The notes beneath the pieces are model-generated. The model did no database searches and was not told where the DNA came from. It was given only the letters and a program-made list of their open reading frames with translations. From IMG/VR virus record IMGVR_UViG_2531839665_000018: a stretch of DNA of 40,326 nucleotides. One strand, given 5' to 3'. This DNA comes from a virus (Duplodnaviria; Heunggongvirae; Uroviricota; Caudoviricetes). The position numbers were made by a program, and so were the translations under genes. Shown here one piece after another: positions 6,167-40,326 of the stretch; the stretch's first letter is position 1; every line of letters begins with the position of its first letter.

Positions 6167-6282
6167 GTATGCCGTTCTCACAAAAAAACCGCTTGCCATG
6201 CCGCAATCAGTCAGGTTACATTTCCGCTGCACCTCATAAAACGGGTGCCGGGATTCTCAACCCGATACAGAGCAAAGCGCAT

Positions 6283-6303
6283 AACCGCGCAAGCGGTTTT
6301 TTT
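6283..6303 (+). terminator. Candidate intrinsic terminator (GNRA-type loop)
   Basis: AACCGC-GCAA-GCGGTT stem-loop followed by seven T. Confidence 0.4.
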
Positions 6304-6482
6304 GTGCGTACTGTATTGCCACGTCTTTTTCGCGTCAGAATTATGGCGGGGCGTACGGGGCCGACTTCGGTCGGGCCGGATTCTTTGCTCTCCGGTGTTG
6401 AGAACCCTGTACGTCTCGCCACCCCGAGATTCTCAACTCTGGATGGTGAGTTATTTCTATCACCGAGCAAAGAGGCCACACC

Positions 6483-7157: not shown

Positions 7158-9980
7158 ATGACGGCAGAGTACATCAGGGACTGGCAACAACCGCGCCACG
7201 CAGTGGGGCGTGAAGGAACGGGGATCCCCGCTCCTGAATCCGCGCTTTCCTCCTGGCTGGATGCTTACCGGGTAGAGAACGAGCGCCGCCAGGAAATGGC
7301 TGACGCGGCGTTCTCCGCCACACCGCTGGGCAACCTGATTAATAAAAGCCTGGACGCACAGGAAAAGCAGGACAAAACCATCACACTGGCCAGAGAAGCC
7401 AGAAAACAGGCACGCGGTGCGGTGGATGAAGCCATGGCCTCGCTGCGCCTGCTGCCGTCCTATCTGCGCGATCCGCTTATTCGCCACCTCTCCTTCCTGC
7501 GCAAAAAACAGGAAGCCGATCGCCGGAAAGGCAAAAAGAGCTGGCAGGCGGAACGCTATGCACGCGGAACCCTGCGCAAAATATTGGAACGTCTGGCCCG
7601 CACTGACGGACGCTGGCTGACTCCGGGTTATCGCTCCCTTGCCGGACGTGAACGTCTGGACGATTTACTTTACCTGCCGCAGCTCAACAAACACCAGATA
7701 CAGACACTGGCCGTCATGACGGCGGCAATGTTCAGCAGCACCTTCGAAAAACTCTGCGATGGCTTTGGCGCGACCGATGGCGAGCTGACCATGGATATAA
7801 CGCTGAAGGCGTATCAGCTGCTGGCTCGCATGGCGTTACATCTGCACACAGTGCCTCCGCATTATGACGCACTGACAACAGACAAAGACCGGAGGAACGA
7901 ACCGGACACAGAACTGCTGCCGGGTGCAATCCTTCGCCTGACCTGTGCGGACTGGTGGAAACGCAAATTGTGGCTTTTACGTTGCGAATGGAGAGAGGAA
8001 CAACTCCGCGCTGCCTGTCTGGTTTCCAGAAAAACATCCCCCTATCTGAGTCAGGATGCATTAAGTGAATTTCGCGCACAGCGCGAGAAAACACGCGATT
8101 TCCTGAAAAGTTTCATGCTGGAAAATGAAGACGGGTTCACGATTGATCTCGAGACAGTGTATTACGCGGGAGTAAGTAACCCGGTTCACCGTAAGGCAGA
8201 AATGATGGCCACCATGAAGGGGCTGGAACTTCTGGCCGAAGCCCGTGGCGACAAAGCGGTGTTTCTGACTGTCACCTGCCCGTCAAAATACCACGCTACA
8301 ACAGAGAACGGTCATCCGAATCCCAAATGGAACGGGGCCACCATGCGCGACTCCAGCGATTACCTGGTTAACACGTTTTTTGCGGCGGTCCGCAAGAAAC
8401 TGAACCGCGACGGCCTGCGCTGGTATGGCATCCGCACGGTGGAGCCTCACCATGACGGCACCGTGCACTGGCATATGATGGTCTTTGCTCATCCGGAAGA
8501 AATCGACACCATTGTGTCCCACACCCGCGATATTGCCATTCAGGAAGATCGTCACGAGCTGGGCGATGATATTACTCCGCGCTTTAAGGCGGAGTATGTC
8601 GACGGCTCAAAAGGCACGCCAACCAGCTACATCGCCACCTACATCGGAAAAAACCTGGACAGCCGCGCCGTGGATGGCATCGACCCGAAAACAGGCAAAC
8701 CACGCGTTGACCACGAAACCGGAAAATCAATGACCGAGAGCGTGGAACGCGCCATTGGCTGGGCGCGCCTTCACCGGGTCCGCCAGTTCCAGTTCTTTGG
8801 CATCCCCTCCCGTCAGGTGTGGCGTGAACTGCGTCGCCTTGCCAGCCAGATGGCACGCAACCCGGAAGGCCCGCAACGGCTGAAGGATGACGCAATGGAT
8901 GCGGTTCTTGCTGCCGCTGATGCCGGATGTTTTGCCACCTACATTGAGAAACAGGGAGGCGTACTTGTTCCACGCAAGGACTACCTGATTCGCACCGCCT
9001 ACGACCTCGCAGATGAGCTGAACGATTACGGCGAACAGAGCGTACAGATTTACGGGATCTGGTCACCACTCATCGGGGAATCCTCCCGTGTGTGCACGCA
9101 CCCGGATAACTGGAAGCTGGTAAGACGTAAACCGGGAGTAGAAGACAGCGCCCGCGAAAATGGTTTTGACCTTCAGGGCGGCCCTGCCGCCCCTTGGACT
9201 CGTGGCAATAACTGTCCCCGTGTACAGGAAACGGACAACAACGGGGCAGAACAGCCGGAAGAACGGCCAGCACCGTGGCCGCAGCTCCCTGACGGCGTTG
9301 AAGTGAACGAATGGATGCGCTCACTGAAACGGCACGAACGCCGGGCGCTGATGCGTTCGCTTCGTGACAAACAGGCAAAAAACAGCAGTGATGAAATGCA
9401 GAGCTGGACACAGAGCCGCAAACAGCAGCGGCCTTTGCCTGATAACCACGAATTACTCGCTAAAGAATGGCGGGAGTCTGCCGAATCTCTCGGCCTGCAT
9501 ATCGGTGAACAGCAGATGCAGCACCTGCTACGGGGCGGCAGCCTGTACGTTGACGGCAGCATCATTGCACCGCAGGGATATGAAATTGTACGCAAACCGG
9601 ATACCCGCCCGGACAGCCGAATCACGCAGCTCTGGCAGCACCTGAGCCGTAATCACGGCGTAAGCAGCACGGAGATCCGCCATAACCCGGTCGCCAGCTA
9701 TCTGGCACAGCTGGGGGCATCAGACCCCGGAGCCGCCGCACGCCTGGCATCCGCACTTCAGCAGGACCAGAACACCATGAAAACACCCGTTACCGTGCTT
9801 TCTGACATGCTGCGCGCCATCCGCGGCGCAGAGCACGCACAGAGAATCAGTGAAACCACTGAACGCGCCAGCCGCAAAGCAGACCTGCTGCAGGGTGGCC
9901 TGACCAGTGGAAACAAAAAACAGACAGAAACGGGACTCACGAATCCCGTAAATGAGCAAAAAACGCGCAGCGATATATGA
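7158..9980 (+). CDS. A: Rolling-circle replication initiation endonuclease (P2 gpA family) with a ~200-aa C-terminal extension
   Basis: Conserved HUH-type core: VEPHHDGTVHWHMMVFAHPEE and tyrosine-bearing SYIATYIGKNL; 940 aa, longer than typical A proteins. Confidence 0.85.
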   Translation: MTAEYIRDWQQPRHAVGREGTGIPAPESALSSWLDAYRVENERRQEMADAAFSATPLGNLINKSLDAQEKQDKTITLAREARKQARGAVDEAMASLRLLPSYLRDPLIRHLSFLRKKQEADRRKGKKSWQAERYARGTLRKILERLARTDGRWLTPGYRSLAGRERLDDLLYLPQLNKHQIQTLAVMTAAMFSSTFEKLCDGFGATDGELTMDITLKAYQLLARMALHLHTVPPHYDALTTDKDRRNEPDTELLPGAILRLTCADWWKRKLWLLRCEWREEQLRAACLVSRKTSPYLSQDALSEFRAQREKTRDFLKSFMLENEDGFTIDLETVYYAGVSNPVHRKAEMMATMKGLELLAEARGDKAVFLTVTCPSKYHATTENGHPNPKWNGATMRDSSDYLVNTFFAAVRKKLNRDGLRWYGIRTVEPHHDGTVHWHMMVFAHPEEIDTIVSHTRDIAIQEDRHELGDDITPRFKAEYVDGSKGTPTSYIATYIGKNLDSRAVDGIDPKTGKPRVDHETGKSMTESVERAIGWARLHRVRQFQFFGIPSRQVWRELRRLASQMARNPEGPQRLKDDAMDAVLAAADAGCFATYIEKQGGVLVPRKDYLIRTAYDLADELNDYGEQSVQIYGIWSPLIGESSRVCTHPDNWKLVRRKPGVEDSARENGFDLQGGPAAPWTRGNNCPRVQETDNNGAEQPEERPAPWPQLPDGVEVNEWMRSLKRHERRALMRSLRDKQAKNSSDEMQSWTQSRKQQRPLPDNHELLAKEWRESAESLGLHIGEQQMQHLLRGGSLYVDGSIIAPQGYEIVRKPDTRPDSRITQLWQHLSRNHGVSSTEIRHNPVASYLAQLGASDPGAAARLASALQQDQNTMKTPVTVLSDMLRAIRGAEHAQRISETTERASRKADLLQGGLTSGNKKQTETGLTNPVNEQKTRSDI

Positions 9981-28158: not shown

Positions 28159-28776
28159 TTGGACGGGAGATTCAGTGTGCTGATTGGTTATGTAAGGGTA
28201 TCAACAAATGACCAGAATACAGACCTGCAACGAAACGCTCTTGTTTGTGCAGGATGTGAACAAATATTTGAAGATAAATTAAGCGGGACAAAGACAGACC
28301 GACCGGGATTAAAACGCGCTTTAAAGCGGCTTCAAAAAGGTGACACGCTGGTTGTCTGGAAACTGGATCGCCTCGGGCGAAGCATGAAACATCTGATTTC
28401 TCTCGTCGGGGAACTACGGGAGCGAGGGATTAATTTTCGCAGTCTGACCGACAGCATAGATACATCTTCTCCAATGGGGCGTTTTTTCTTCCACGTTATG
28501 GGTGCCCTGGCTGAAATGGAACGTGAATTAATTGTTGAACGTACACTGGCCGGACTGGCGGCAGCGCGCGCACGGGGGCGCACAGGCGGACGTCGCCCGA
28601 AGCTGACAAAAGAACAGCATGAGCAAATAGCTAGGCTGATCAAAAACGGTCATGACAGGAAACAACTGGCGATCATTTACGACATCGGCATATCGACAAT
28701 TTATCGTTATCACCCTGTAGGCGATATACAGGCTGAAGAAACAACCAGGCAGACTCAGGAAAATGAAAACCGCTAA
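28159..28776 (+). CDS. Serine DNA invertase (Hin/Gin/Cin/Pin family)
   Basis: Resolvase N-terminal catalytic region GYVRVSTNDQ...DTLVVWKLDRLGRSMKHL and C-terminal HTH; adjacent to the invertible segment. The track start is a TTG; a nearby GTG (VLIGYVRVST) is the more likely start. Confidence 0.9.
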   Translation: MDGRFSVLIGYVRVSTNDQNTDLQRNALVCAGCEQIFEDKLSGTKTDRPGLKRALKRLQKGDTLVVWKLDRLGRSMKHLISLVGELRERGINFRSLTDSIDTSSPMGRFFFHVMGALAEMERELIVERTLAGLAAARARGRTGGRRPKLTKEQHEQIARLIKNGHDRKQLAIIYDIGISTIYRYHPVGDIQAEETTRQTQENENR

Positions 28777-28801
28777 TCTGACCATTAGCGGTTTTGCGTT
28801 A
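28770..28801. terminator. Candidate bidirectional terminator between invertase and U
   Basis: CCGCTAAT-N6-ATTAGCGG stem with T-runs on both strands; coordinates +/-2 bp. Confidence 0.4.
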
Positions 28802-28802
28802 A

Positions 28803-29297
28803 TCAAAACAGCCCTTTAACGGAGCTGGCCGCGCTGTTAAGGGATGATGTGACCTTATCTTTGAAGCCGGACAGCATATCACTGAACGATGAGGATTGCA
28901 GGCGCTCCCGCAAATCCTCATCACAGCGTTCAAGGGTCAGTGAAAATTCTATCTTTTTCGCCTTACCGTAGCGATCAAACTCGGAACGGGTCGTATTCGT
29001 TCCGGTCAGGACATACATGCCGTAAATCTGCCCGACGCCATCAATCAAAGGCCAGGGTCGTCCTGTATACGCCTGCGTGGTCAGCAGCGACAGCGACACT
29101 TCGCCACCTGTAATTTCAGGATAAAGCACACCAGAAAGAACGATGCGATCATCACCTGCACCGATATACTGCCAGCTTGCTGAACGGTTAACGCGTTCAT
29201 TTTTCACATGCCGCCAGCTTTTGTTTTGCTGTAACTGCTGATGCGGCAGCGTGCGCAGCTCAAAAACAAACATGCCGTAGATCATCATCATGGCCAT
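28803..29297 (-). CDS. U: Tail protein (P2 gpU family)
   Basis: 164 aa; adjacent to the tape-measure gene on the same strand. Confidence 0.8.
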   Translation of the reverse strand: MAMMMIYGMFVFELRTLPHQQLQQNKSWRHVKNERVNRSASWQYIGAGDDRIVLSGVLYPEITGGEVSLSLLTTQAYTGRPWPLIDGVGQIYGMYVLTGTNTTRSEFDRYGKAKKIEFSLTLERCDEDLRERLQSSSFSDMLSGFKDKVTSSLNSAASSVKGLF

Positions 29298-29303
29298 GAC
29301 TCC

Positions 29304-32120
29304 TCAATCTTTATCGTAAAAACTGCCACGCCCAGCACGGGCGCGCCGTTCCATTTCTGCCCTGACCATTTCACCGACCAGTTTCGCCAGTTCGCGGGGA
29401 TTCTGCGTAACAACGTTATGCAGATGAACATGAATTTCACCGCCAAATCCGGAGGCAACAGTCTCCCGGTTACGGGAAGTTGCAGGAACTGATGCCACTG
29501 GCGATCGTATGGCCTCTGCCACCGGGCGGGAGCTGGCCGCAACAACAGGGACCAGCGCCGGAGGCAGCGGAGCCGGAACCACAGGTGTGATATTAATTGC
29601 GGGGGCAGGCTTACTGACCTGCGCAATCTTCCGCTCCTGCCACTCCCCACGAACAGCAAGTGCGCGGGGCAGGTTCTTAAAGACAATATCGCCGGGGCCA
29701 ATGCGTTTTTTCGTCTCATCAACCAGCTTACCTGTGTTATCAGCAATTTTGCTGAGTCTGCGTAGCGTCCCGGTATTGCTGTCTGTGAGCGGTTTGTTGT
29801 CTTTGGGTTTATCACCTCCGGTGCCATTGCCATTTTCCACAGGCTTCGGCGGATTGATTTTCGCCAGGTCCCCCTGAAGCAAGGCAACCTTGTCCTGAAG
29901 AATGGCCGCACGCTGTGCGTCTTCGATTTTCTTGCGCGCCCTTTCCGCTTCATCCGGAAGCACACCGAGCTTTTCAAGTATCCACGCCAGCGTATCCAGC
30001 AACATTTTTGCAGGTGTCAGAACAAGTTGTAACGCACCACCAAGAACGTTACCGAATATCTCGCCAGCACTGGTACATTTATCCAGCGTTTCCTTGCTGG
30101 ACTCCATCGGTGACAGCAGCGATTTAAACCAGTTAAACACCTGGCTTATCCCGCTTCCGATTGCGTCAAAAACAGGACCAAACCGTTCAAAGGTTTCGCG
30201 CAACGGGGCCAGCCGCTCCATAATCCCACTGAACACCCCGGCAAAAAATGCCCTGATTGGGTCCCAGTATTTCCAGATAAGAATGGCAGCTCCGGCAAGC
30301 GCAGCCACGATAAGACCAACCGGACTGAACAGCGCCCCGATAGCGCCCCCCAGTAACGAAACGGAACCCGTCACCATTCCCCATAGTGCTGGCAGAACCC
30401 TGACAGCATTCATTGATCCGGTCAGGAGGGAAAAACCAAGACGCAGTTTTGCCAGCGGGCCAGCAAGCACACCAATAGCCAGCGGCAACGAGCCAACCGT
30501 TGCAGTCATTGCCAGCAGTGCACCGCCTGCAATCAGTAGCTGGCGCGTCAGTGCGGGATGGGCCTGCGCCAGCGCCGTCACCTTTGATACCACACGCGTG
30601 AGCCACTGCGTGACAGAACGCAGCGGACCGTCAATCAGATCTGCAATGCGGATGCGCAACCCTTCCCATGCACTGCTGAGTGATTTCAGATCGCCGTCAA
30701 GGTTGTTGGCCATAACCTTTGCCGTGCGTTCAGCCTCACCGCGCGCGCCTTCAAGTTCTTTTCTCAGTTTGGGTAAGGAGCCGTCACCTGCCGCATCAAC
30801 GAGGGCCATAAATGATGTGAAAGCCTCTTCTCCGGCAATGTCCTTAAAGAACGATACCCGGTCAACTTCCCCGTATTTGCGGGTAGCTTTATAAAGGTCA
30901 GCCAGCACATCCTCCATCGGGCGCATTTTGCCCCCGGCATCCGAGACAGACACGCCAAGCTCTTTCAGCGCCTCTGCTGCCGCCTTTGGCGGTGATGCCA
31001 GACGAGCCAGGCTGGCACGCATTGCCGTACCAGCATCACTCCCCGTGATACCCATATTCGCCAGCACGCCCGCCATCGCTGCGGCCTGCTCCAGCGATAT
31101 TCCCAGCTTACCCGCCACCGGACCTGCATATTTCATGGTTTCACCCAGTGCGCGAAGGTCAGTGTTGGTACGGGTAAACGCTGCGGTGAGTGTGTCGCCG
31201 ACCCGGTCCATCTGGTCAGCAGAAAGACCGAACTGCGTCAGAATATTTGAGCCAATATCCGCCGTCTCACCGAGGTCCATACCGCCAGCCGTTGCCATGC
31301 TCAGTACGCCAGGGAGCGCAGCCTGAATGGCCTGTGGTGTGAAGCCAGCCATTGCAAGAAATGCCTGCCCACTGGCGGCATCGCCTGCGGTGAACTGCGT
31401 TTCAGAGCCAAGTTTTAACGCCTGCTCACGCAGCGCCTTAAACTGCGGGCTGTTTTTGTCGATTCGCGTCAGTGCCTGAACGCGGGACATCTCTTTCCCG
31501 AACCCGATCGCAGGCTGCAAAAAACGCCCGGCAGCATAGCCGCCCGCCGCTGCCGCACCAATTGCCAGCGCACCACCTGTTTTCAGTTTTCCCGCTGTTT
31601 CCTGCGCGCGCGAATACCGCTCACGCGCCTGCGTTACACGCGCAAGCGCCTGCCGTTCGCGTTCAAGCTGGTTGTTGTACTGTTCGGTGCGTCTGATGGC
31701 CTGCTGGATGGTGTTATCGCTGCCTGTCAGGGAAATGCCGTGGCGTTTCAGCTCTCCGCCAATCTCCCGCATTTTCTGAATTTCCCGTGTGCGCGATTCA
31801 TTCAGGCGTTCAAGCCGGGTGCTTAACTGCTGCATCAGCTTTTGTTGTTTTTCGCTGAGCACTGTACCCGTGCGTTGTAACTGATTAAGGGCGTTAAGCT
31901 GGCGTCGTGCTTTCACGATACCCGCATCCGCTTTACTGACAGCGTCGCGGGCGCGCTCAAATGAACGCGCCTGACGCTCGAGATTTTTGATCGCCCCCTG
32001 CGTTCGCTGGATGGAGTCACCAAACTGCCCCATCAGGCGGCGGGCGTTTTCGGCAGGCCGGGTCAGCCTGTCAACGGCGCTGAAAGCGACCCGGATATCA
32101 AGAGTCTTCATTGTCTGCAT
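29304..32120 (-). CDS. T: Tail tape measure protein (P2 gpT family)
   Basis: About 940 aa, coiled-coil N-terminal half then Gly/Ala-rich hydrophobic segments; start taken at an internal Met (track start 32147). Confidence 0.85.
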   Translation of the reverse strand: MQTMKTLDIRVAFSAVDRLTRPAENARRLMGQFGDSIQRTQGAIKNLERQARSFERARDAVSKADAGIVKARRQLNALNQLQRTGTVLSEKQQKLMQQLSTRLERLNESRTREIQKMREIGGELKRHGISLTGSDNTIQQAIRRTEQYNNQLERERQALARVTQARERYSRAQETAGKLKTGGALAIGAAAAGGYAAGRFLQPAIGFGKEMSRVQALTRIDKNSPQFKALREQALKLGSETQFTAGDAASGQAFLAMAGFTPQAIQAALPGVLSMATAGGMDLGETADIGSNILTQFGLSADQMDRVGDTLTAAFTRTNTDLRALGETMKYAGPVAGKLGISLEQAAAMAGVLANMGITGSDAGTAMRASLARLASPPKAAAEALKELGVSVSDAGGKMRPMEDVLADLYKATRKYGEVDRVSFFKDIAGEEAFTSFMALVDAAGDGSLPKLRKELEGARGEAERTAKVMANNLDGDLKSLSSAWEGLRIRIADLIDGPLRSVTQWLTRVVSKVTALAQAHPALTRQLLIAGGALLAMTATVGSLPLAIGVLAGPLAKLRLGFSLLTGSMNAVRVLPALWGMVTGSVSLLGGAIGALFSPVGLIVAALAGAAILIWKYWDPIRAFFAGVFSGIMERLAPLRETFERFGPVFDAIGSGISQVFNWFKSLLSPMESSKETLDKCTSAGEIFGNVLGGALQLVLTPAKMLLDTLAWILEKLGVLPDEAERARKKIEDAQRAAILQDKVALLQGDLAKINPPKPVENGNGTGGDKPKDNKPLTDSNTGTLRRLSKIADNTGKLVDETKKRIGPGDIVFKNLPRALAVRGEWQERKIAQVSKPAPAINITPVVPAPLPPALVPVVAASSRPVAEAIRSPVASVPATSRNRETVASGFGGEIHVHLHNVVTQNPRELAKLVGEMVRAEMERRARAGRGSFYDKD

Positions 32121-32627
32121 TCCCGCTGCGAAGTGCCGCCCGCTCACGCCAGCTAACCACTTCGCCGGGCGTCATCATGAAGATTTCGGCGGGCGACCAG
32201 TTAAAAATAACGGCAATATCTGCCACAAAGTCTTCTATGTGCTCAAAGCACACAACCGTGATCAGGCTTCCGTCGCCTGTTCGTTCTTCCCGCCAGAGTC
32301 CGCACCGCTCAAAAAATTTACGGCAACCACACATAACTGAATAAAGTCACGGGATGCCATTTTTTTGATCGTCACTTCATCCAGTCGCGGTGATGTCACG
32401 CGTGACAGCAGCGTAAACATGGATTCCGCTTTCAGATTCAGCACATCAGACAGCGACAAATCTCGCAGAGATCCAGCCTGCTCAATAGCCCCGGTGATCT
32501 CCACATACGTGATTTTTTCGCCGCCTCGCTCAATTGGTTGGGTAAGTTTTACGCCACGCTCACTGGTTTCTTTCACAGTGTCAGCAACTACCGTGTTTTC
32601 GGTATCGATGTTTTTCGTCTCTTTCAT
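32098..32627 (-). CDS. Tail assembly chaperone E+E' made by programmed -1 frameshift (slippery T_TTT_TTG at 32310-32316, minus strand)
   Basis: E frame reads AAT TTT TTG (..VNFL..); the -1 frame continues as FFERCG..., which is the track ORF 32098..32334. Frames checked codon by codon. Confidence 0.6.
32262..32627 (-). CDS. E: Tail assembly chaperone (P2 gpE family)
   Basis: ORF between the tube gene and tape measure, containing the slippery heptamer near its 3' end. Confidence 0.75.
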   Translation of the reverse strand: MKETKNIDTENTVVADTVKETSERGVKLTQPIERGGEKITYVEITGAIEQAGSLRDLSLSDVLNLKAESMFTLLSRVTSPRLDEVTIKKMASRDFIQLCVVAVNFLSGADSGGKNEQATEA

Positions 32628-32681
32628 CAGGAAACTCCTTTCAGTCAGAGGCGACGCACTGCGCCGCCTGCATATTACTTA

Positions 32682-33194
32682 TCAGCCAAGCCCAAGCGCG
32701 GAACGGATGCGATCGGGCACAATGTCCTTGCCGTCCTTCCGGTAAATGAAGTTCAGCAGGTCAATCTCCCACAGCGGGCGATCGTTAACGCTCAGCTTGT
32801 AGTAGGTGTTTTTAATGGCGTAAGAGTGTGATGTGGCTTCGCCCTGTTTGGCTTCCCCCATATCAATTTCCGTCACACGTCCGCGCATTTCGACTTCATA
32901 CAGGTCGCTTTCTGCATCGGTGTAGTATTCACCCGCAAAACGCAGCAGCGTGCCGTCAATCGTGCCGCCATACTTAAGGAACAGCTCACGAACTGCGCCC
33001 CCCATGACAAAGCTCGCATCAAGCGCGGAGTCGTCCAGACCGAGATCAATACTTACCGCACCCATCATGCCACCACCCCGGTAGCTGTCGGTTTTGCGCG
33101 TCAGCTTAGGCAGAGTGACGGACGTCACCTTACCCACTTCGTTTTCACCATCCACAAACAGCGTAAAAAAGCGAAGATGTTTTGGCACAGCCAT
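32682..33194 (-). CDS. FII: Major tail tube protein (P2 gpFII family)
   Basis: 170 aa; immediately downstream of the sheath gene on the same strand. Confidence 0.85.
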   Translation of the reverse strand: MAVPKHLRFFTLFVDGENEVGKVTSVTLPKLTRKTDSYRGGGMMGAVSIDLGLDDSALDASFVMGGAVRELFLKYGGTIDGTLLRFAGEYYTDAESDLYEVEMRGRVTEIDMGEAKQGEATSHSYAIKNTYYKLSVNDRPLWEIDLLNFIYRKDGKDIVPDRIRSALGLG

Positions 33195-34378
33195 CAGGCA
33201 CCTCCCAGCACCGCAAATGCGGGTTCAAAGTATTCATCAGTAAACGTCTGGTAAAGCTCCATATCTTCCAGCGGGGGAACAGGCGTATATTTGTAGCGAA
33301 TACGCACACGCCCCTGACGTAAATCCGTGGTGCTGTTATCCACCACGTCATACCAGCACTCCGCGCCAATCAGTTTCCCGGCAGTAACCAGTGAATCCAG
33401 TTTTGCCCTGATGGCACTGATAACATCCTTCACGTTCGCAGGCGTCAGTGGACTGTCGATGGTTTCAAACTGCGCTTCCGCAATTGAATCAGCCAACACC
33501 TGTGCGGTTCGGGTATACACCTCAAAGATGTAGGCGTTCGTTTCCGGTGTGCGGTTGCCCCAGAAGCGGAACCCGTTGCGACGAATAATGGTCGTGATTT
33601 CTTTGTTGTTGAGGCTGTTGGCATCACTGTCTTCGGCCTGCAACGACCAGAACACATGCCTGGACATCCCCAGCACATTTTTAACCGGAACGTTGGACAG
33701 CGATTTGTGCCAGCCCTGTTCATGGTCAATGTACGCACGGAGGCCGCACGCATAGGCAGGCGCGGGGAACGTTTCGTTTTTGCCACTTTTGGGGTTGTAG
33801 GCGATGAAGTCCGGCCATAAGAGCATCACCTCACGTTCGTTGAATTTCTGGCGGTAGGTAATCGCCTCAGCCATCGTGTTACAGCCGTGACATGAGGCAT
33901 ACACAAACGCGCGCAGTTTACCTGCAATCACGCACAGGGATTTTGTTACAGCCTCCGTGTCCAGCTCCGGCGCGGCCAGAATACGCGGACGGTATCCGAT
34001 GCTTTCATCCTGCTCTGCAACAAGCAGCGCATACATCCCCGTATAGCTGCCGTCATCCTCAGAACCACCGATAACCAGTTGATCCTGCGTCTTTCCGTCT
34101 TCTTCTTTGTGTTCAGCCACGCGAACGACGATTACCTTTGTGCTCACCTGGTCTGCAATGGCCTTAAGCGCACGATAAAGCGTCCCCGTTGTCCCGCATT
34201 TTCCCAGCACGTCATTGACGCGGGTCAGCAGTGTGGGCTTGTTCAGCGGGAACAGCTTCGCGTCCGCATCATCCGCCGTTGCCACGATACCGATAACGCT
34301 GGAATCAACATCGTTAATCGCAGTTACCAGGTCGGTATTTTCCGTAACACGGGCACCATGAAAACGAGTTTCACTCAT
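33194..34378 (-). CDS. FI: Tail sheath protein (P2 gpFI family)
   Basis: 394 aa; synteny with FII-E-T-U. Confidence 0.85.
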   Translation of the reverse strand: MSETRFHGARVTENTDLVTAINDVDSSVIGIVATADDADAKLFPLNKPTLLTRVNDVLGKCGTTGTLYRALKAIADQVSTKVIVVRVAEHKEEDGKTQDQLVIGGSEDDGSYTGMYALLVAEQDESIGYRPRILAAPELDTEAVTKSLCVIAGKLRAFVYASCHGCNTMAEAITYRQKFNEREVMLLWPDFIAYNPKSGKNETFPAPAYACGLRAYIDHEQGWHKSLSNVPVKNVLGMSRHVFWSLQAEDSDANSLNNKEITTIIRRNGFRFWGNRTPETNAYIFEVYTRTAQVLADSIAEAQFETIDSPLTPANVKDVISAIRAKLDSLVTAGKLIGAECWYDVVDNSTTDLRQGRVRIRYKYTPVPPLEDMELYQTFTDEYFEPAFAVLGGA

Positions 34379-34535
34379 AGCTTCAGCCCCTTGTATCCGT
34401 TAAATGATTCGGCAACAATCATCACCCACCACGCGCGCAATCTCACCCCTGCGCCATTCTCCCGCCACGGCGACAACAAAAAGCAGTAACCCCCTCCGCA
34501 CGCACATGCGACCATGCCGCACAGGGAGGGAACAG

Positions 34536-35645
34536 ATGACCGACACCACCATGCAATTGCTCAGTCAGGGCACAGACCCCGTGAAAATGCCGGATTTTGA
34601 TATTCTCGCCGAGGGTAAAACGCTGTCCGGCGTGGCAGAACGCCTGATGAGCCTGTCACTGACCGACAACCGGGGATTTGAGGCGGACCAGCTCACCATC
34701 ACGCTGGATGATGCCGATGGCCAGTTGCAGCTACCGCCACGGGGCGCGCGTCTGACGGTTCTCATTGGCTGGAAAGGGGAACCGCTGACAGAAAAAGGCA
34801 CTTACATTGTTGATGAAATCGCTCACGAAGGACCGCCGGACAGGCTGACTGTTTCAGCCAGAAGCGCAGATTTTCGGGATGAATTTAATGTTAAACGTGA
34901 GGCGTCCTGGCATGATGTGACCGTTGAACGTGTGGTATCCGCCATCGCTCATCGGTACGGCCTGAAACCGCAAATCAGCGAAATGCTGATGGATATCGAA
35001 ATCGACCACGCCGACCAGACTGAAGAAAGCGACATGTCCTTCCTTACGCGCATGGCGGAAATGCTGGGCGCAATCACCACGGTAAAAAGCGGTAATCTGT
35101 TATTCATCATGCCCGGCGGTGGCGTGAACGCACAGGGCCAGCCGTTGCCATCGTTCGCCATCACACGCAGCAGCGGCGATCGCCATCAGTTCCGCATTGC
35201 TGACCGCGAGGCGTATACGGGGGTACGCGCTTACTGGCTTGATCTTAATTACGGGAAAAAGAAAAAAGTCAGCGTGAAACGCCGCAAACCGCCAAAACCC
35301 AAAAAGGAGAAAAGCAGCAGCCGTGAAGGTGATTATATGGAAGGCGCGGAAGGCAATGTGTTTGTGTTACGCAAGACTTATCAGAACGAGCAGGCAGCAA
35401 GACGCGCAGCGGCGGCAAAGTGGCAGCAGCTACAACGCGGAGCCGCATCATTTTCCATCACGCTGGCGCGTGGACGTGCAGAACTCTACCCCGAAATGCA
35501 TGGCACGGTAACAGGATTTAAAAGCGAGATTGATAATCAGGACTGGATTATTGCGAAAGCCGAGCACACCATTGATAACAGCGGCTTTACCACACAGCTT
35601 GAGCTTGAGGCAAAAATCCCGGAATGGATAGCAGAAACAGAGTGA
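34536..35645 (+). CDS. D: Tail protein D (P2 gpD family)
   Basis: Start at the internal Met with strong RBS GGAGG (track ORF starts at 34404); 369 aa. Confidence 0.8.
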   Translation: MTDTTMQLLSQGTDPVKMPDFDILAEGKTLSGVAERLMSLSLTDNRGFEADQLTITLDDADGQLQLPPRGARLTVLIGWKGEPLTEKGTYIVDEIAHEGPPDRLTVSARSADFRDEFNVKREASWHDVTVERVVSAIAHRYGLKPQISEMLMDIEIDHADQTEESDMSFLTRMAEMLGAITTVKSGNLLFIMPGGGVNAQGQPLPSFAITRSSGDRHQFRIADREAYTGVRAYWLDLNYGKKKKVSVKRRKPPKPKKEKSSSREGDYMEGAEGNVFVLRKTYQNEQAARRAAAAKWQQLQRGAASFSITLARGRAELYPEMHGTVTGFKSEIDNQDWIIAKAEHTIDNSGFTTQLELEAKIPEWIAETE

Positions 35646-35765
35646 GCAACTTAGACATATTAGCTCAAACTTAAACTGGCAAGTTTACAGTATAGAATTA
35701 AACATAAACGACGGTCCGCTCCGTGTCAGAAGCGGACTTTGTCATCCCTATGTAAGGTTGATTGC

Positions 35766-36788
35766 TTAATACGCATTTAATTTAAATTTGTATTTGCCTT
35801 CTATGTAATGGATAAATTCAATTATGCTTTTTTCTATCGCATCTAATATATGAATATATCCATCCCGATTTAAGGTCCTATCCAATTCAAAGTGATGAAC
35901 TATCCCATGTCTATATTGTATGATTTCAGAAATTCGATTCTCAAGAAAATCAACTGATTTTCCAATTCTTTTTTTCTTATAAAGAATCGCTCTCACATCT
36001 ATATCCAGCCACTCTTTATATGCTTTGTTTAGGTGGGTTAAGTTTTGAAAAGTGTAATTTCTTGCAATAACACTTTCTATTGAAATATTTCCTTTCTCTA
36101 TCTCAAGCAGAATATCAAAATCAACTTTTTGCTTATACGATGTTCTTTTTGCTATTGCGAAAGGATCGTACTTTATAAGTATTTGAAAAGCTCTAGAGAA
36201 AAAGTATTCAAACATAGCAACCGCAAAAGGTACTAATCCATTATATATAACTCTACTGGGATCCATACATTGCATGTAATCAAAGTATTCGGATAAGCCG
36301 CCATCTTCCGGTAGGTTTAATTTAATAGAAGGTTCAGGTAAGGCATGTTTAACAGCGGAAATCTCATGATGGACATGATTAAATATTGAAGAAATGCCAC
36401 GACTGATCGGACTACTAGAATCCTTCCATAGAGGAGCGTACCTATTTTTCCCATAATCACCTATAAGTGTTCCACCAAAAAGACTCCTTGCGCCTTTTAG
36501 AACATCATTAAGCATTTTTACATCATGCCAACTAGCGCTATATAAATTACGCACATGCAATGCCCATTTATTACCAGATATGTGTAATTCGTCATTTGAA
36601 ACAGGATATATATCAGCCGAAACTCCATCTGTAGATTTGAAGTCCGTATCATCAAACCAAGAGTAATTCAACGTTCCTTGGGGCCATTCCCACAAATGTT
36701 TACACCTTTTAAAACCTAAATTTTCAAGGTAATTTTTAAGTTCGTTTCTAGTTGCTTTTTTAGGGTACAGCGTTATATCTCTTCCCAT
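35766..36788 (-). CDS. Hypothetical 340-aa protein in an AT-rich insert; C-terminal Rx4H HEPN-like motif
   Basis: Strongly AT-rich compared with flanking D and ogr; opposite strand; motif RHGIVHH near the C-terminus; no other recognisable domain. Confidence 0.55.
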   Translation of the reverse strand: MGRDITLYPKKATRNELKNYLENLGFKRCKHLWEWPQGTLNYSWFDDTDFKSTDGVSADIYPVSNDELHISGNKWALHVRNLYSASWHDVKMLNDVLKGARSLFGGTLIGDYGKNRYAPLWKDSSSPISRGISSIFNHVHHEISAVKHALPEPSIKLNLPEDGGLSEYFDYMQCMDPSRVIYNGLVPFAVAMFEYFFSRAFQILIKYDPFAIAKRTSYKQKVDFDILLEIEKGNISIESVIARNYTFQNLTHLNKAYKEWLDIDVRAILYKKKRIGKSVDFLENRISEIIQYRHGIVHHFELDRTLNRDGYIHILDAIEKSIIEFIHYIEGKYKFKLNAY

Positions 36789-36979
36789 GCTTTATTCACC
36801 TGATATACAATATTTTAAATTTTAACTATTATGAACGTATGAATTTTCACATTGGATGTATGGAAGTTCAACAACTATTGAAAGTTCAATTTTCACTCTT
36901 CGCACAGAGCGAGCTGTTAGTTGGAATTAGGGATCGTACAATCTAGAATAGCGGCAACACCACGTTAAGGGAGGTCGCT

Positions 36980-37240
36980 ATGTTCCGTTGTCCGCTTTGT
37001 GGCGCATCTGCCCGTATCCGCACAAGTCGTCCGGAAAATGATTCAAACACCGTGCGGCAAAAGTATTACCAGTGTAACAATCTGGAATGCGGCGTATGCT
37101 TCTCAACACTGGAAGCTTTCCATAAATTCACATCGAAACACGCCTCCGGCGTTCACTCTTCAGAAGGTATCCCGTGGCATGAGCTACCAGCTTCACACAG
37201 GGGAAACAATCAGATGAGTTTGCCTTTACCTCAGAATTAA
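36980..37240 (+). CDS. ogr: Late gene transcriptional activator, zinc finger (Ogr/Delta family)
   Basis: MFRCPLCGASARIRTSR...YYQCNNLECGVCF has the C-x2-C...C-x4-C pattern and N-terminus typical of Ogr; strong RBS AGGGAGG. Confidence 0.8.
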   Translation: MFRCPLCGASARIRTSRPENDSNTVRQKYYQCNNLECGVCFSTLEAFHKFTSKHASGVHSSEGIPWHELPASHRGNNQMSLPLPQN

Positions 37241-37430
37241 CAAGCAGAATTGCCGGAGTAACAAAAAAGCGATAGATTACGCGCGGGTGCCTTTCGGCTG
37301 ATGGTCGGAGGGAATACCCGAAGGCCAGATGTGGAAAGGCCCCGGAAAACACTTTTGTTTAACCGAGGCCCTAACCGTCTACCCTAAGCAAGTGAAAGGT
37401 TAGCGCCTCTCCGGAAAAGGAGCAAGTGCT

Positions 37431-37571
37431 ATGTCGCAAAAATCGCTTACAGCCATCACGTTCTGCGTGACGGTAATCCTCATCATCTGGATGTTGCACG
37501 GTTCGCTGTGCGAAATACGGATGAGTTTCTGGGGAGCGGAGTTTGCGGCGTTCTTACAGTGTAAGCAGTAA
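37431..37571 (+). CDS. Hok/Gef-family type I toxin
   Basis: 46-aa product with one TM helix then the family signature SLCEIR and EFAAF; RBS AGGAG; not in the ORF track (under 60 aa). Confidence 0.6.
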   Translation: MSQKSLTAITFCVTVILIIWMLHGSLCEIRMSFWGAEFAAFLQCKQ

Positions 37572-37832
37572 GGAAACCGCGACGGGGGAGTAATCCCCCG
37601 TCAATCGGTTGCCAGGGTAAGGTCGATAAGGCACCCTATCTCACGGCTCTAAATGCAAAAATTCCATGAAACTGTGGGATTTTTGCATCACTACTGATAC
37701 AGATCTGCCCTTCTATATGTCTCACTCTATACCAGCTAATCAATTGACACTTATCAATAAAAAAAAATCTGATAAAATCAAAATGTTTTGTAACAAATAT
37801 CAACTCGTATTGATCCAAAGGAGGCGGATTAC

Positions 37833-38165
37833 ATGGCATTAATCAAATGTCCTGAATGCCAGAAAGAGGTGAGCGATTCAGCATTGTATTGCCCTGCTTG
37901 CGGTAAACAAATAAAAAAACTTAAGCGTTCATTTTTTGGAAAGCTCATTAAGTGGATATTTATATTATTTAATATTTTTATGATCTATACGCTTTTAGTT
38001 GGACTGGGAGGCACTAGTGAAATAATAAATAATGCTACATCCGATGCCGAAAAAGCCGGTGCAGTTATTGGTACAGGCTTAGGTTTAATTACCATTGGAA
38101 GTTTATGGGTTATTGGCGATATCATTATCGGAATTTTAGTATTTCTTACTAAACCAAAAGGATAA
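37833..38165 (+). CDS. Zinc-ribbon membrane protein
   Basis: N-terminal CPEC...CPAC zinc ribbon followed by two hydrophobic helices; AT-rich. Confidence 0.5.
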   Translation: MALIKCPECQKEVSDSALYCPACGKQIKKLKRSFFGKLIKWIFILFNIFMIYTLLVGLGGTSEIINNATSDAEKAGAVIGTGLGLITIGSLWVIGDIIIGILVFLTKPKG

Positions 38166-38169
38166 CAAA

Positions 38170-39063
38170 ATGAAAAATATAATTTTTTCTATAGGTGCAT
38201 CATTTATATCAATTAGTGTACTGCCTGTTCACGCAGCAACTGAACATAATAACTTCAATGCAGTACTCCAGTGCCGAGCAATAGAAAATAATAAAGACAG
38301 ACTTTCTTGTTACGATAAGTCAATACAACCGACTCGAACGAAAGTTGCTGAAAAATTCGAAAGCAGAGATCAATGCCCTGATGAGAAAGATGATGACAGA
38401 CGTTTATCTTGTTATGATCGTTTTTTTTCTCCAACATTTACTCCATCTGTAAACTCAAAATCTAAAACGGAAAAGCCAGTAACAACAGAGGCTCAGCAAC
38501 CAAATCTTTCTGAGATATCTAAATGCCGAGCAGAAAATGATAAAGAAGCCAGACTAAACTGCTACGATAAACTATTCCCACAGGATAAAGCTGTTCAAGC
38601 TGAATCAAAATTAGAGAAAGCCAAAGATGTAGGAAAATGGCACACATCCATTACTACATCGCCAATTGATGATTCGAAAAATGTAATTTTATCGTTAGAA
38701 AGTGATGATTATATCAGAACTCCATTTGGAGAAGCGGTTACTCCCACTCTGTTTATAGCTTGCCGAGAAAAGAAAACCGAAGTATTTCTTAGTTGGGATG
38801 TATATTTAGGCCTTGAACAAACCAGCATGCTTTATCGTCTTGATAAACAGAAAGCAGTTGAGCGAAACTGGCTAGTATCTACAGATACAAAGGCTGTTTT
38901 TTATAAAGGTAATGACATTGATTTCATCCGAAAACTAGCCAACTCAAACAAAATGTATACAAAAATAACTCCTTATAATGAGAGCCCTGTAAGTGCAACT
39001 TTCAATTTAAACGGCCTGTCAAACGCGCTAAAACCACTTCAAGCTGCTTGTAACTGGAAATAG
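38170..39063 (+). CDS. Secreted repeat protein (three RLSCYD-type repeats)
   Basis: N-terminal signal peptide; repeats DRLSCYDKSI / RRLSCYDRFF / ARLNCYDKLF; AT-rich. Confidence 0.5.
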   Translation: MKNIIFSIGASFISISVLPVHAATEHNNFNAVLQCRAIENNKDRLSCYDKSIQPTRTKVAEKFESRDQCPDEKDDDRRLSCYDRFFSPTFTPSVNSKSKTEKPVTTEAQQPNLSEISKCRAENDKEARLNCYDKLFPQDKAVQAESKLEKAKDVGKWHTSITTSPIDDSKNVILSLESDDYIRTPFGEAVTPTLFIACREKKTEVFLSWDVYLGLEQTSMLYRLDKQKAVERNWLVSTDTKAVFYKGNDIDFIRKLANSNKMYTKITPYNESPVSATFNLNGLSNALKPLQAACNWK

Positions 39064-39330
39064 CATAAATCATGTGGCTTAGCCACAATCACAGATAACA
39101 CAAAGCCCGTGAAAACGGGCTTTGTGTTATCTGTAACTCGAAAATGTGGTCACTACGTGGACACGTGCTGATATAAATCCTTTTATATCAATAAATTAAA
39201 TCATCATTTTTTTCATCAACAAGGATTTTCACGTTTGTGTTACCTGTATGAGACGAGAGTTAACCGGACAAGTGTGCCATAATCTCGCGGCCAGGCATAC
39301 TTGCGAAGATTTCAGGTATAAGGATACGTA

Positions 39331-40326
39331 ATGATACAACCTATTTCCGGCCCTCCTCCTGGGCAACCACCAGGTCAGGGAGATAACCTGCCGTCTGGCG
39401 CGGGCAATCAGCCTTTATCCAGTCAGCAACGTACTTCGCTGGAAAGCTTAATGACGAAAGTGACCTCACTGACGCAACAACAAAGAGCAGAACTGTGGGC
39501 GGGTATCAGGCACGATATTGGTCTGTCGGGAGATTCACCGCTGCTTTCGCGTCACTTCCCTGCCGCTGAGCATAATCTGGCGCAACGTCTGCTGGCCGCG
39601 CAAAAAAGCCATTCTGCCCGCCAGCTTTTAGCGCAATTAGGGGAGTATTTACGTCTGGGGAATAATCGTCAGGCGGTCACGGATTATATCCGTCATAACT
39701 TTGGTCAGACGCCGCTGAATCAGCTCTCACCGGAGCAATTAAAAACCATTCTCACCCTGTTGCAGGAAGGGAAGATGGTTATTCCGCAACCACAGCAGCG
39801 CGAGGCGACCGACCGTCCTTTATTACCGGCGGAGCACAATGCGCTAAAACAGCTGGTGACCAAACTTGCGGCGGCAACGGGGGAACCCAGCAAACAGATC
39901 TGGCAATCGATGCTGGAACTTTCCGGGGTGAAAGATGGCGAGTTAATTCCAGCGAAACTGTTTAACCATCTGGTGACCTGGTTGCAGGCGCGCCAGACGT
40001 TAAGCCAGCAAAATACGCCGACGCTGGAATCACTACAGATGGCGCTAAAACAACCTTTAGATGCCAGTGAACTGGCGGCGTTATCGGCATATATCCAGCA
40101 AAAATATGGCCTTTCTGCGCAATCATCGCTTTCTTCTGCCCAGGCCGAGGATATTCTTAATCAGCTTTATCAACGGCGGGTTAAAGGGATTGATCCGCGT
40201 GATATGCAACCGCTGCTTAATCCTTTTCCACCGATGATGGACACGTTGCAAAATATGGCAACGCGTCCCGCGCTGTGGATACTGTTAGTCGCGATTATCC
40301 TGATGCTGGTCTGGCTGGTTCGTTAG
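39331..40326 (+). CDS. flk: Flk-like flagellar regulator (C-terminal membrane anchor)
   Basis: N-terminus MIQPISGPPPGQPPGQG and a C-terminal hydrophobic anchor (ALWILLVAIILMLVWLV) match my recollection of enterobacterial Flk; not checked against a database. Confidence 0.55.
   Translation: MIQPISGPPPGQPPGQGDNLPSGAGNQPLSSQQRTSLESLMTKVTSLTQQQRAELWAGIRHDIGLSGDSPLLSRHFPAAEHNLAQRLLAAQKSHSARQLLAQLGEYLRLGNNRQAVTDYIRHNFGQTPLNQLSPEQLKTILTLLQEGKMVIPQPQQREATDRPLLPAEHNALKQLVTKLAAATGEPSKQIWQSMLELSGVKDGELIPAKLFNHLVTWLQARQTLSQQNTPTLESLQMALKQPLDASELAALSAYIQQKYGLSAQSSLSSAQAEDILNQLYQRRVKGIDPRDMQPLLNPFPPMMDTLQNMATRPALWILLVAIILMLVWLVR

Follow-up and report, generated by a model that had tools for sequence, protein, structure and literature searches.

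The window analysed here is a stretch of 40,326 nucleotides of viral DNA (Caudoviricetes; IMG/VR record IMGVR_UViG_2531839665_000018). Towards its right end, a small toxin gene of the Hok/Gef family follows ogr and is embedded in a series of predicted RNA elements. Two further genes and an attachment site lie downstream. The features that we discuss are given in order of position, with the strand in brackets.

36980–37240 (+): ogr/Delta-like zinc-finger late-gene activator (Pfam PF04606 Ogr_Delta, 52.4 bits; RefSeq)
37250–37278 (+): putative hok promoter, with −35 TTGCCG at 37250–37255, a 17-nt spacer and −10 TAGATT at 37273–37278
37285–37642 (+): predicted full-length hok mRNA of ~358 nt (minimum free energy, MFE, −160.1 kcal/mol; z −7.38)
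37285–37299 (+): tac-like 5′ element GGGUGCCUUUCGGCU, which pairs with 37621–37636 in the MFE fold
37329–37403 (+): 24-codon leader ORF of uncertain status, with its stop codon, UAG, at the foot of the SD hairpin
37335–37345 (+): ucb-like internal partner AAAGGCCCCGG of the 5′ element, whose pairing excludes the fbi pairing
37389 to ~37333 (−): predicted Sok-like RNA of ~56 nt (fold z −3.9)
37397–37425 (−): predicted Sok-like promoter, with −35 TTGCTC at 37425–37420, a 17-nt spacer and −10 TAACCT at 37402–37397
37401–37433 (+): hairpin in which the SD and start codon of hok are buried (helix 7, 94.7% of cells paired)
37431–37571 (+): hok CDS, a 46-aa ORF with the translation MSQKSLTAITFCVTVILIIWMLHGSLCEIRMSFWGAEFAAFLQCKQ
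37581–37602 (+): stable 3′ hairpin of 9 bp with a GUAA loop (helix 14, 98.8% paired)
37621–37636 (+): fbi-like 3′ element GGUCGAUAAGGCACCC, which pairs with 37285–37299
37653–37688 (+): 15-bp A/T-rich hairpin without U-tract (z −4.8), the first feature of the variable cargo segment
37833–38165 (+): zinc-ribbon membrane protein, phage cargo (Pfam Zn_Ribbon_1; PHROG 6586)
38170–39063 (+): TagO/VasI-like protein, phage cargo (Pfam VasI; PHROG 1848)
39210–39229 (+): attR core TTTTCATCAACAAGGATTTT in the first codons of pdxB, exactly where homology to K-12 resumes

The initial annotation had proposed a toxin of 46 aa with an SLCEIR motif and a transmembrane helix. Both are real: SLCEIR forms residues 25–30, and residues 6–23 read as a hydrophobic stretch. 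The protein matches the Pfam profile HOK_GEF (PF01848) with 30.1 bits, above the gathering score of 22 (E 3.7e-7; 38 of the 42 profile positions covered), and PHROG 251 (‘MokW-like host killing’) with E 2.5e-23. Both matches are far above chance. When the protein is aligned with HokA, HokB and HokC of K-12, as had been suggested as a check, C12, T14, E28 and A39 are invariant. These conserved Cys/Thr/Glu/Ala positions, the length class of ~50 aa and the N-terminal hydrophobic helix are those of the Hok family. Among the named proteins, HokA of K-12 is closest (41% identity), and the best NCBIfam match is the HokA equivalog NF007290, whose cut-off of 89 is not reached with 35.8 bits. By these scores, the 46-aa Hok is a relative of HokA and not a HokA equivalog. 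Compared with the copy of phage P88, the gene has five synonymous and no non-synonymous differences; dN/dS is 0–0.57 overall and 0.06–0.57 against more distant copies, which shows purifying selection on the peptide. Searching viral contigs with a degenerate DNA pattern for SLCEIR returned the same sublineage and chance matches, and no distant homologues.

The ORF had also been described as unannotated, which does not hold. An identical ORF is present in RefSeq as WP_000078920.1 (‘Hok/Gef family protein’), and gp52 of phage P88 is noted as ‘hok/gef family protein’; the element is of a known kind and already annotated. It is also widespread. With megablast, we found the 501-bp region in 1,592 of 5,426 complete E. 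coli genomes, and with blastn the hok locus in 1,750 of the 5,426, with up to nine copies per genome. About 30% of the E. coli genomes carry the lineage, which is maintained on a large number of independent mobile elements. Relatives at 75–88% identity have lom or J as neighbours when they are in lambdoid prophages, and others are on plasmids (IncI1, IncF). Using a lineage-specific 23-mer and one genome per species, we detected only Salmonella enterica and two assemblies labelled as Firmicutes. The latter are a Planococcaceae MAG (DEQA01000038.1) and Vagococcus sp. (NZ_JBQPOM010000071.1), which contain DNA with 99% and 95% identity, respectively, to the present P2-like prophage region of E. 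coli; this prophage DNA is probably due to contamination or mis-binning.

To describe the RNA, we used an alignment of 29 non-redundant homologues with 73–100% identity. The hexamers of the putative hok promoter are found in their commonest forms in 19 of the 29 and as near variants in the others, and the 17-nt spacer is present in 28. The geometry resembles that of K-12 hokB and hokC, in which 6 nt separate a −10-like box from the conserved GGGTGC start; this 5′ motif is shared with the hokB/mokB/sokB, hokC/mokC/sokC and hokA loci of K-12. Neither this promoter nor the Sok-like promoter was called by the promoter scan. Both are weak by consensus, the hok promoter agreeing with it at 8 of 12 positions and falling below the scan threshold.

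The long leader that had been noted upstream of the ORF is part of a strongly folded mRNA (z about −7.4) which, together with the Pfam and PHROG 251 matches, bears out the proposed type I toxin of the Hok/Gef family and its long, structured leader. When the structure is projected on the 29 homologues, 93.1% of the cells are paired, compared to 38–45% in slid controls. Furthermore, compensatory changes are found at 27 pairs, compared to 13.2 in shuffles, and none of 500 shuffles reaches the observed number. The 5′ and 3′ ends are joined by a tac/fbi closing helix of 15 bp (across the 29 homologues, pairing is 93.1% in helix 1 and 98.6% in helix 2); this helix is mostly invariant, so that its support comes from conservation, and covariation is limited. 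In all phages compared, the conserved part of the module ends with the fbi-like element. In the RNAalifold consensus, the 5′ end pairs instead with the internal AAAGGCCCCG at 37336–37345 (columns 69–79 with 120–129), and this pairing becomes the MFE structure in silico when the 3′ 38 nt are removed. In these folding models, the 5′ end would alternate between the extreme 3′ end (closed form) and the internal box (open form).

Two hairpins flank the start and the end of the coding sequence. The hok SD, AAGGAG at 37417–37422, lies 8 nt before the AUG and pairs with an anti-SD, CUCUCC; both the SD and its spacing are conserved among the homologues. Downstream of the ORF, the perfect hairpin that had been noted earlier is present, and one extra G-C pair extends its stem to 9 bp at 37581–37602; four of the nine pairs have compensatory changes. 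The terminator scan found no canonical terminator after fbi in the window. The A/T-rich hairpin at 37653–37688 could possibly be the 3′ boundary of hok transcription. This hairpin is common to PhiR44_2 and Shae_phiSM, whereas P88 and CD45 have a canonical terminator instead.

An antisense Sok-like RNA had been expected in the leader. We found a conserved putative promoter on the minus strand, at a position like that of sokB, which agrees with this expectation, although the promoter is weak by consensus and the Rfam match of the region is below the gathering score. The −35 box is conserved in 24 of the 29 homologues, the spacer in 28 and the −10 box in 28. The layout is that of the curated K-12 sokB (TTGCCG-17-TAAGAT-7 nt-+1 G), and alignment with sokB puts the predicted start at 37389. 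The predicted RNA consists of a single-stranded 5′ tail that varies between lineages, a conserved hairpin and a UUU tail. It would span −42 to −98 from the hok AUG, and the promoter and RNA of K-12 sokB (−48 to −104) and sokC (−49 to −107) are at the same distance; the lengths are likewise similar (~56 nt compared to 57 nt for sokB and 59 nt for sokC). The Rfam family sok (RF01794) matches 37285–37444 (+) with 51.9 bits (E 1.2e-10), below its gathering score of 59; the common 46-aa lineage is therefore left unannotated by Rfam. The alignment is full-length and on the sense strand, from the 5′ end of the hok mRNA to about the hok AUG, and RF01794 as built thus seems to describe the strand of the hok leader. 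In E. coli JNEC-KY174, two tandem hok cassettes follow ogr (positions 1190–1330 and 1660–1800 of the extracted locus). Their identity to the window copy is 73% and 89%, and their Sok 5′ tails differ, which is consistent with specificities that do not cross-react.

Taken together, we are confident that the locus is a complete hok/sok-type cassette of ~390 bp, which begins with the promoter (37250) and ends with fbi (37636), of a HokA-related 46-aa sublineage (PHROG 251). It can be compared to several known systems. In the canonical mechanism, the mutually exclusive tac/fbi and tac/ucb pairings are the hallmark of hok mRNAs (PMC9841398). Like hok/sok of plasmid R1 (parB), the present locus combines a small Hok/Gef membrane toxin, an mRNA closed by a 5′–3′ tac/fbi helix (PMC9841398), an alternative pairing of tac with an internal box, a 3′ hairpin followed by ~40 nt that carry fbi, and a short antisense RNA, predicted here, from a promoter inside the leader. 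The hairpin at 37581–37602 corresponds in position to the one at the 3′ end of the truncated, active hok mRNA of R1. The present Hok has 46 aa compared to 52 in R1, and its carrier is a P2-like prophage, not a plasmid. With the K-12 hok loci, the cassette shares the leader hairpin GGCCCCG...CCGAGGCC; the K-12 loci are at fixed chromosomal sites, whereas the present locus is mobile. A prophage-borne hok/sok has also been described on the Stx2 prophage Sp5 of E. coli O157:H7 Sakai, where toxicity of hokW-sokW, a type I toxin–antitoxin system, and its neutralisation by the sRNA were shown experimentally (PMC8621323). The present cassette resembles it as a prophage-borne type I system and is known from its sequence. 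The link to HokW is through the family name of PHROG 251, from which the present gene has its label ‘MokW-like host killing’ in phage annotations; HokW itself has 51 aa and belongs to a lambdoid phage, in contrast to 46 aa and a P2-like prophage here. In lambdoid prophages, the 46-aa lineage is represented by copies of its own.

The best-supported reading is, with high probability, that of a live hok/sok-type cassette that works as in R1 except for the mok step. By analogy with R1 hok/sok (PMC9841398), the full-length hok mRNA would be stable and untranslatable. Slow trimming of the 3′ end to the hairpin at 37581–37602 would strip fbi from the mRNA, upon which the 5′ end would switch to the internal box and the leader would refold. 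The short-lived Sok-like RNA (37389 to ~37333) would pair with the hok leader and lead to its decay; cells that no longer make Sok would be killed or arrested as Hok inserts into the inner membrane.

The benefit for the phage is likely to be prophage retention, exclusion of other phages or lysis timing. We consider it possible, if clearly the less probable case, that the main role of an active cassette is an abortive-infection type of phage defence or the timing of lysis and release, and not prophage stabilisation. Such a role would fit with hok/sok being implicated in phage defence and with hokW-sokW of Sp5, which facilitates phage release (PMC8621323). It would also fit with the position of the module among variable cargo, beside a HEPN-like gene and other morons. 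However, the sequence does not discriminate between these roles, and the literature on P2 defence hotspots names neither hok nor the interval between ogr and att. Searches of the literature that combined hok with P88 or with P2 hotspots returned nothing specific.

The HEPN-like gene is a 340-aa ORF between gpD and ogr (35766–36788, −), with a weak match to RiboL-PSP HEPN (22.5 bits, below the cut-off). The CD45 prophage has an unrelated gene of 666 nt in the same place; the interval between gpD and ogr is therefore another variable slot, and the ORF is possibly a defence gene.

The step in which the cassette differs from known systems is the translation of mok. In R1, translation of mok up to the hok SD is mandatory for the synthesis of Hok (PMC9841398), and in the K-12 loci mok ORFs are annotated. 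Here, the overlapping frame at the mok position is open for 58 codons and contains no AUG, GUG or UUG before +77. An in-frame extension of hok is blocked by the UAG at 37401, and the position homologous to the start of mokB and mokC reads CUAACCG. The 29 homologues have no conserved alternative either: the stops and starts of the overlapping frame shift across the lineage, and about ten homologues have ORFs of 61–87 aa with different starts. Judged by its reading frames, the cassette departs from the textbook system and from R1, with no mok frame either at the corresponding position or anywhere else in the window, and none conserved in the lineage.

Two candidate substitutes for mok were rejected. 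The 24-codon leader ORF is present in only 5 of the 29 homologues; its terminating UAG is invariant, yet this UAG is also part of the Sok −10 box. The GUG at 37392, just outside the predicted Sok complement, is not the equivalent of the mok start, which the alignment with hokB and hokC puts ~20 nt further upstream. We also considered a model in which the SD is released independently of mok. In the partition function, the probability that the SD is unpaired is 0.00 in the full-length RNA and 0.15 in the truncated RNA, and it returns to 0.00 when the Sok-complementary region of the truncated RNA is blocked. The direction of this change fits most homologues but the effect is small, and the model therefore does not explain activation. 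It is a tentative idea that the 46-aa lineage is naturally mok-less. Translation would then be gated either by the SD hairpin together with a leader refolding that Sok reverses, or by termination of the leader ORF at the invariant UAG.

The missing mok frame might also mean that the cassette is translationally silent or decaying. Hok would then never be made without mok, and the RNA elements would persist by recent common descent. The lack of a usable mok start, the stops that shift in the mok frame across relatives and the requirement for mok translation in R1 (PMC9841398) fit with a silent copy, as does the SD, which is ~85% paired even in the model of the truncated RNA. In addition, one plasmid copy, that of E. 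albertii, is clearly broken. However, purifying selection acts on Hok even between copies with up to 25% difference in their DNA, the strong SD and its spacing are conserved, and the RNA helices contain compensatory changes. The lineage has moreover been kept on many independent mobile elements and is present in about 30% of the E. coli genomes. We thus consider a silent cassette unlikely, and retain the reading of a live one.

We then examined the genomic location. The initial annotation had placed hok between ogr and host-like genes. The upstream side of this is correct, as ogr is a conserved phage gene directly before the hok module. The downstream genes, however, are phage cargo, and the ogr-hok-ZnR-TagO end is common to phage PhiR44_2 and C. 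rodentium Shae_phiSM. The TagO/VasI-like protein is of a type associated with type VI secretion, and PHROG 6586 and 1848 have no known function. The hok module is found inside the circular genome record of phage P88. Furthermore, hok follows ogr in P2-like prophages between dmsA and serS (CD45, an ST131 strain), in a prophage that adjoins a tRNA-Leu gene and in a prophage at pdxB; since hok follows ogr at three att sites, it travels with the phage. By these comparisons, the cassette is phage-borne cargo of a P88-like (P2-family) E. coli prophage.

A comparison with an uninterrupted attB locus had been suggested, and this locus in K-12, where pdxB and flk are adjacent and the interval contains neither hok nor the two cargo genes, places attR at 39210–39229. 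Strain 503025 has a repeat of the attR-core 20-mer where pdxB meets the integrase; in the window, the 20-mer occurs once. By this comparison, the true right end of the insertion is at 39210–39229, 1.6 kb downstream of hok, and both cargo genes (37833–39063) therefore lie inside the element. The initial annotation had offered two options for hok, either the first host gene after attR or a module at the end of the prophage. The first fails, as hok is in the P88 genome and absent from the pdxB-flk interval of K-12; of the second, carriage by the prophage stands, while the position at the boundary does not. That hok is a host gene whose chromosomal locus merely abuts the prophage, to which its position after ogr as the last recognisable P2 core gene and the end of P88 homology ~70 bp after the ORF might point, is highly improbable in view of the circular P88 record, the three different chromosomal sites, the empty K-12 interval with the att core at 39210–39229, and PhiR44_2 and Shae_phiSM, which carry hok along with both downstream genes.

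Homology to P88, CD45 and a Salmonella prophage ends at ~37642–37644, directly after the fbi-like element, and the cargo downstream of hok differs between phages. Thus, hok is a discrete cassette that is followed by a variable slot. An att core of the serS type was sought in the window as an explanation for the breakpoint at 37642 and none was found; the breakpoint is the end of the hok module. Many predicted proviruses in IMG/VR end exactly at the hok stop codon, with the pattern 53 nt from the contig end. This trimming at gene boundaries removes the hok 3′ UTR, including the hairpin and the fbi element, and the cargo up to attR.

The prophage itself is, by its sequence matches, a mosaic. Positions 1–24834 of the window match the CD45 prophage (98%), which lies between dmsA and serS with the att core AAAGCGCCCGCAGGCGCTTT, and the integrase (1–993, −) is 100% identical to that of CD45. 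For positions 28178–40326, the match (97%) is to the prophage at pdxB in strain 503025, and that prophage has a clearly different integrase. As a CD45-type integrase is combined with a pdxB-type attR, the integrase does not fit the attR core. In K-12 coordinates, the serS and pdxB sites are inverted relative to each other. A chromosomal inversion, by recombination of two resident prophages, and a swap of the integrase module would both fit. The integration lies within the first codons of pdxB (39210–39232), and attL is outside the window. At attL of strain 503025 (9040–9100 of its locus), a TTA of the phage replaces the GTG start of K-12 pdxB, and the RefSeq pdxB of this strain is 24 nt shorter, starting from an internal ATG. 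In the early region of the prophage, at 6229–6426 (+), we found Rfam isrK (63.1 bits) beside a C4 antisense RNA (78.5 bits).

For the most part, our analysis has little significance beyond a correct annotation. It moves attR to 39210–39229 and away from hok, and it describes hok and the variable slot downstream of it as a cargo region of P88-like phages. With regard to annotation tools, Rfam misses the Sok-like RNA and the tac and fbi elements of a common lineage, and provirus callers truncate the cassette at the stop codon of hok. If experiments confirm it, the lack of mok could be of interest to specialists in the regulation of type I toxin–antitoxin systems.
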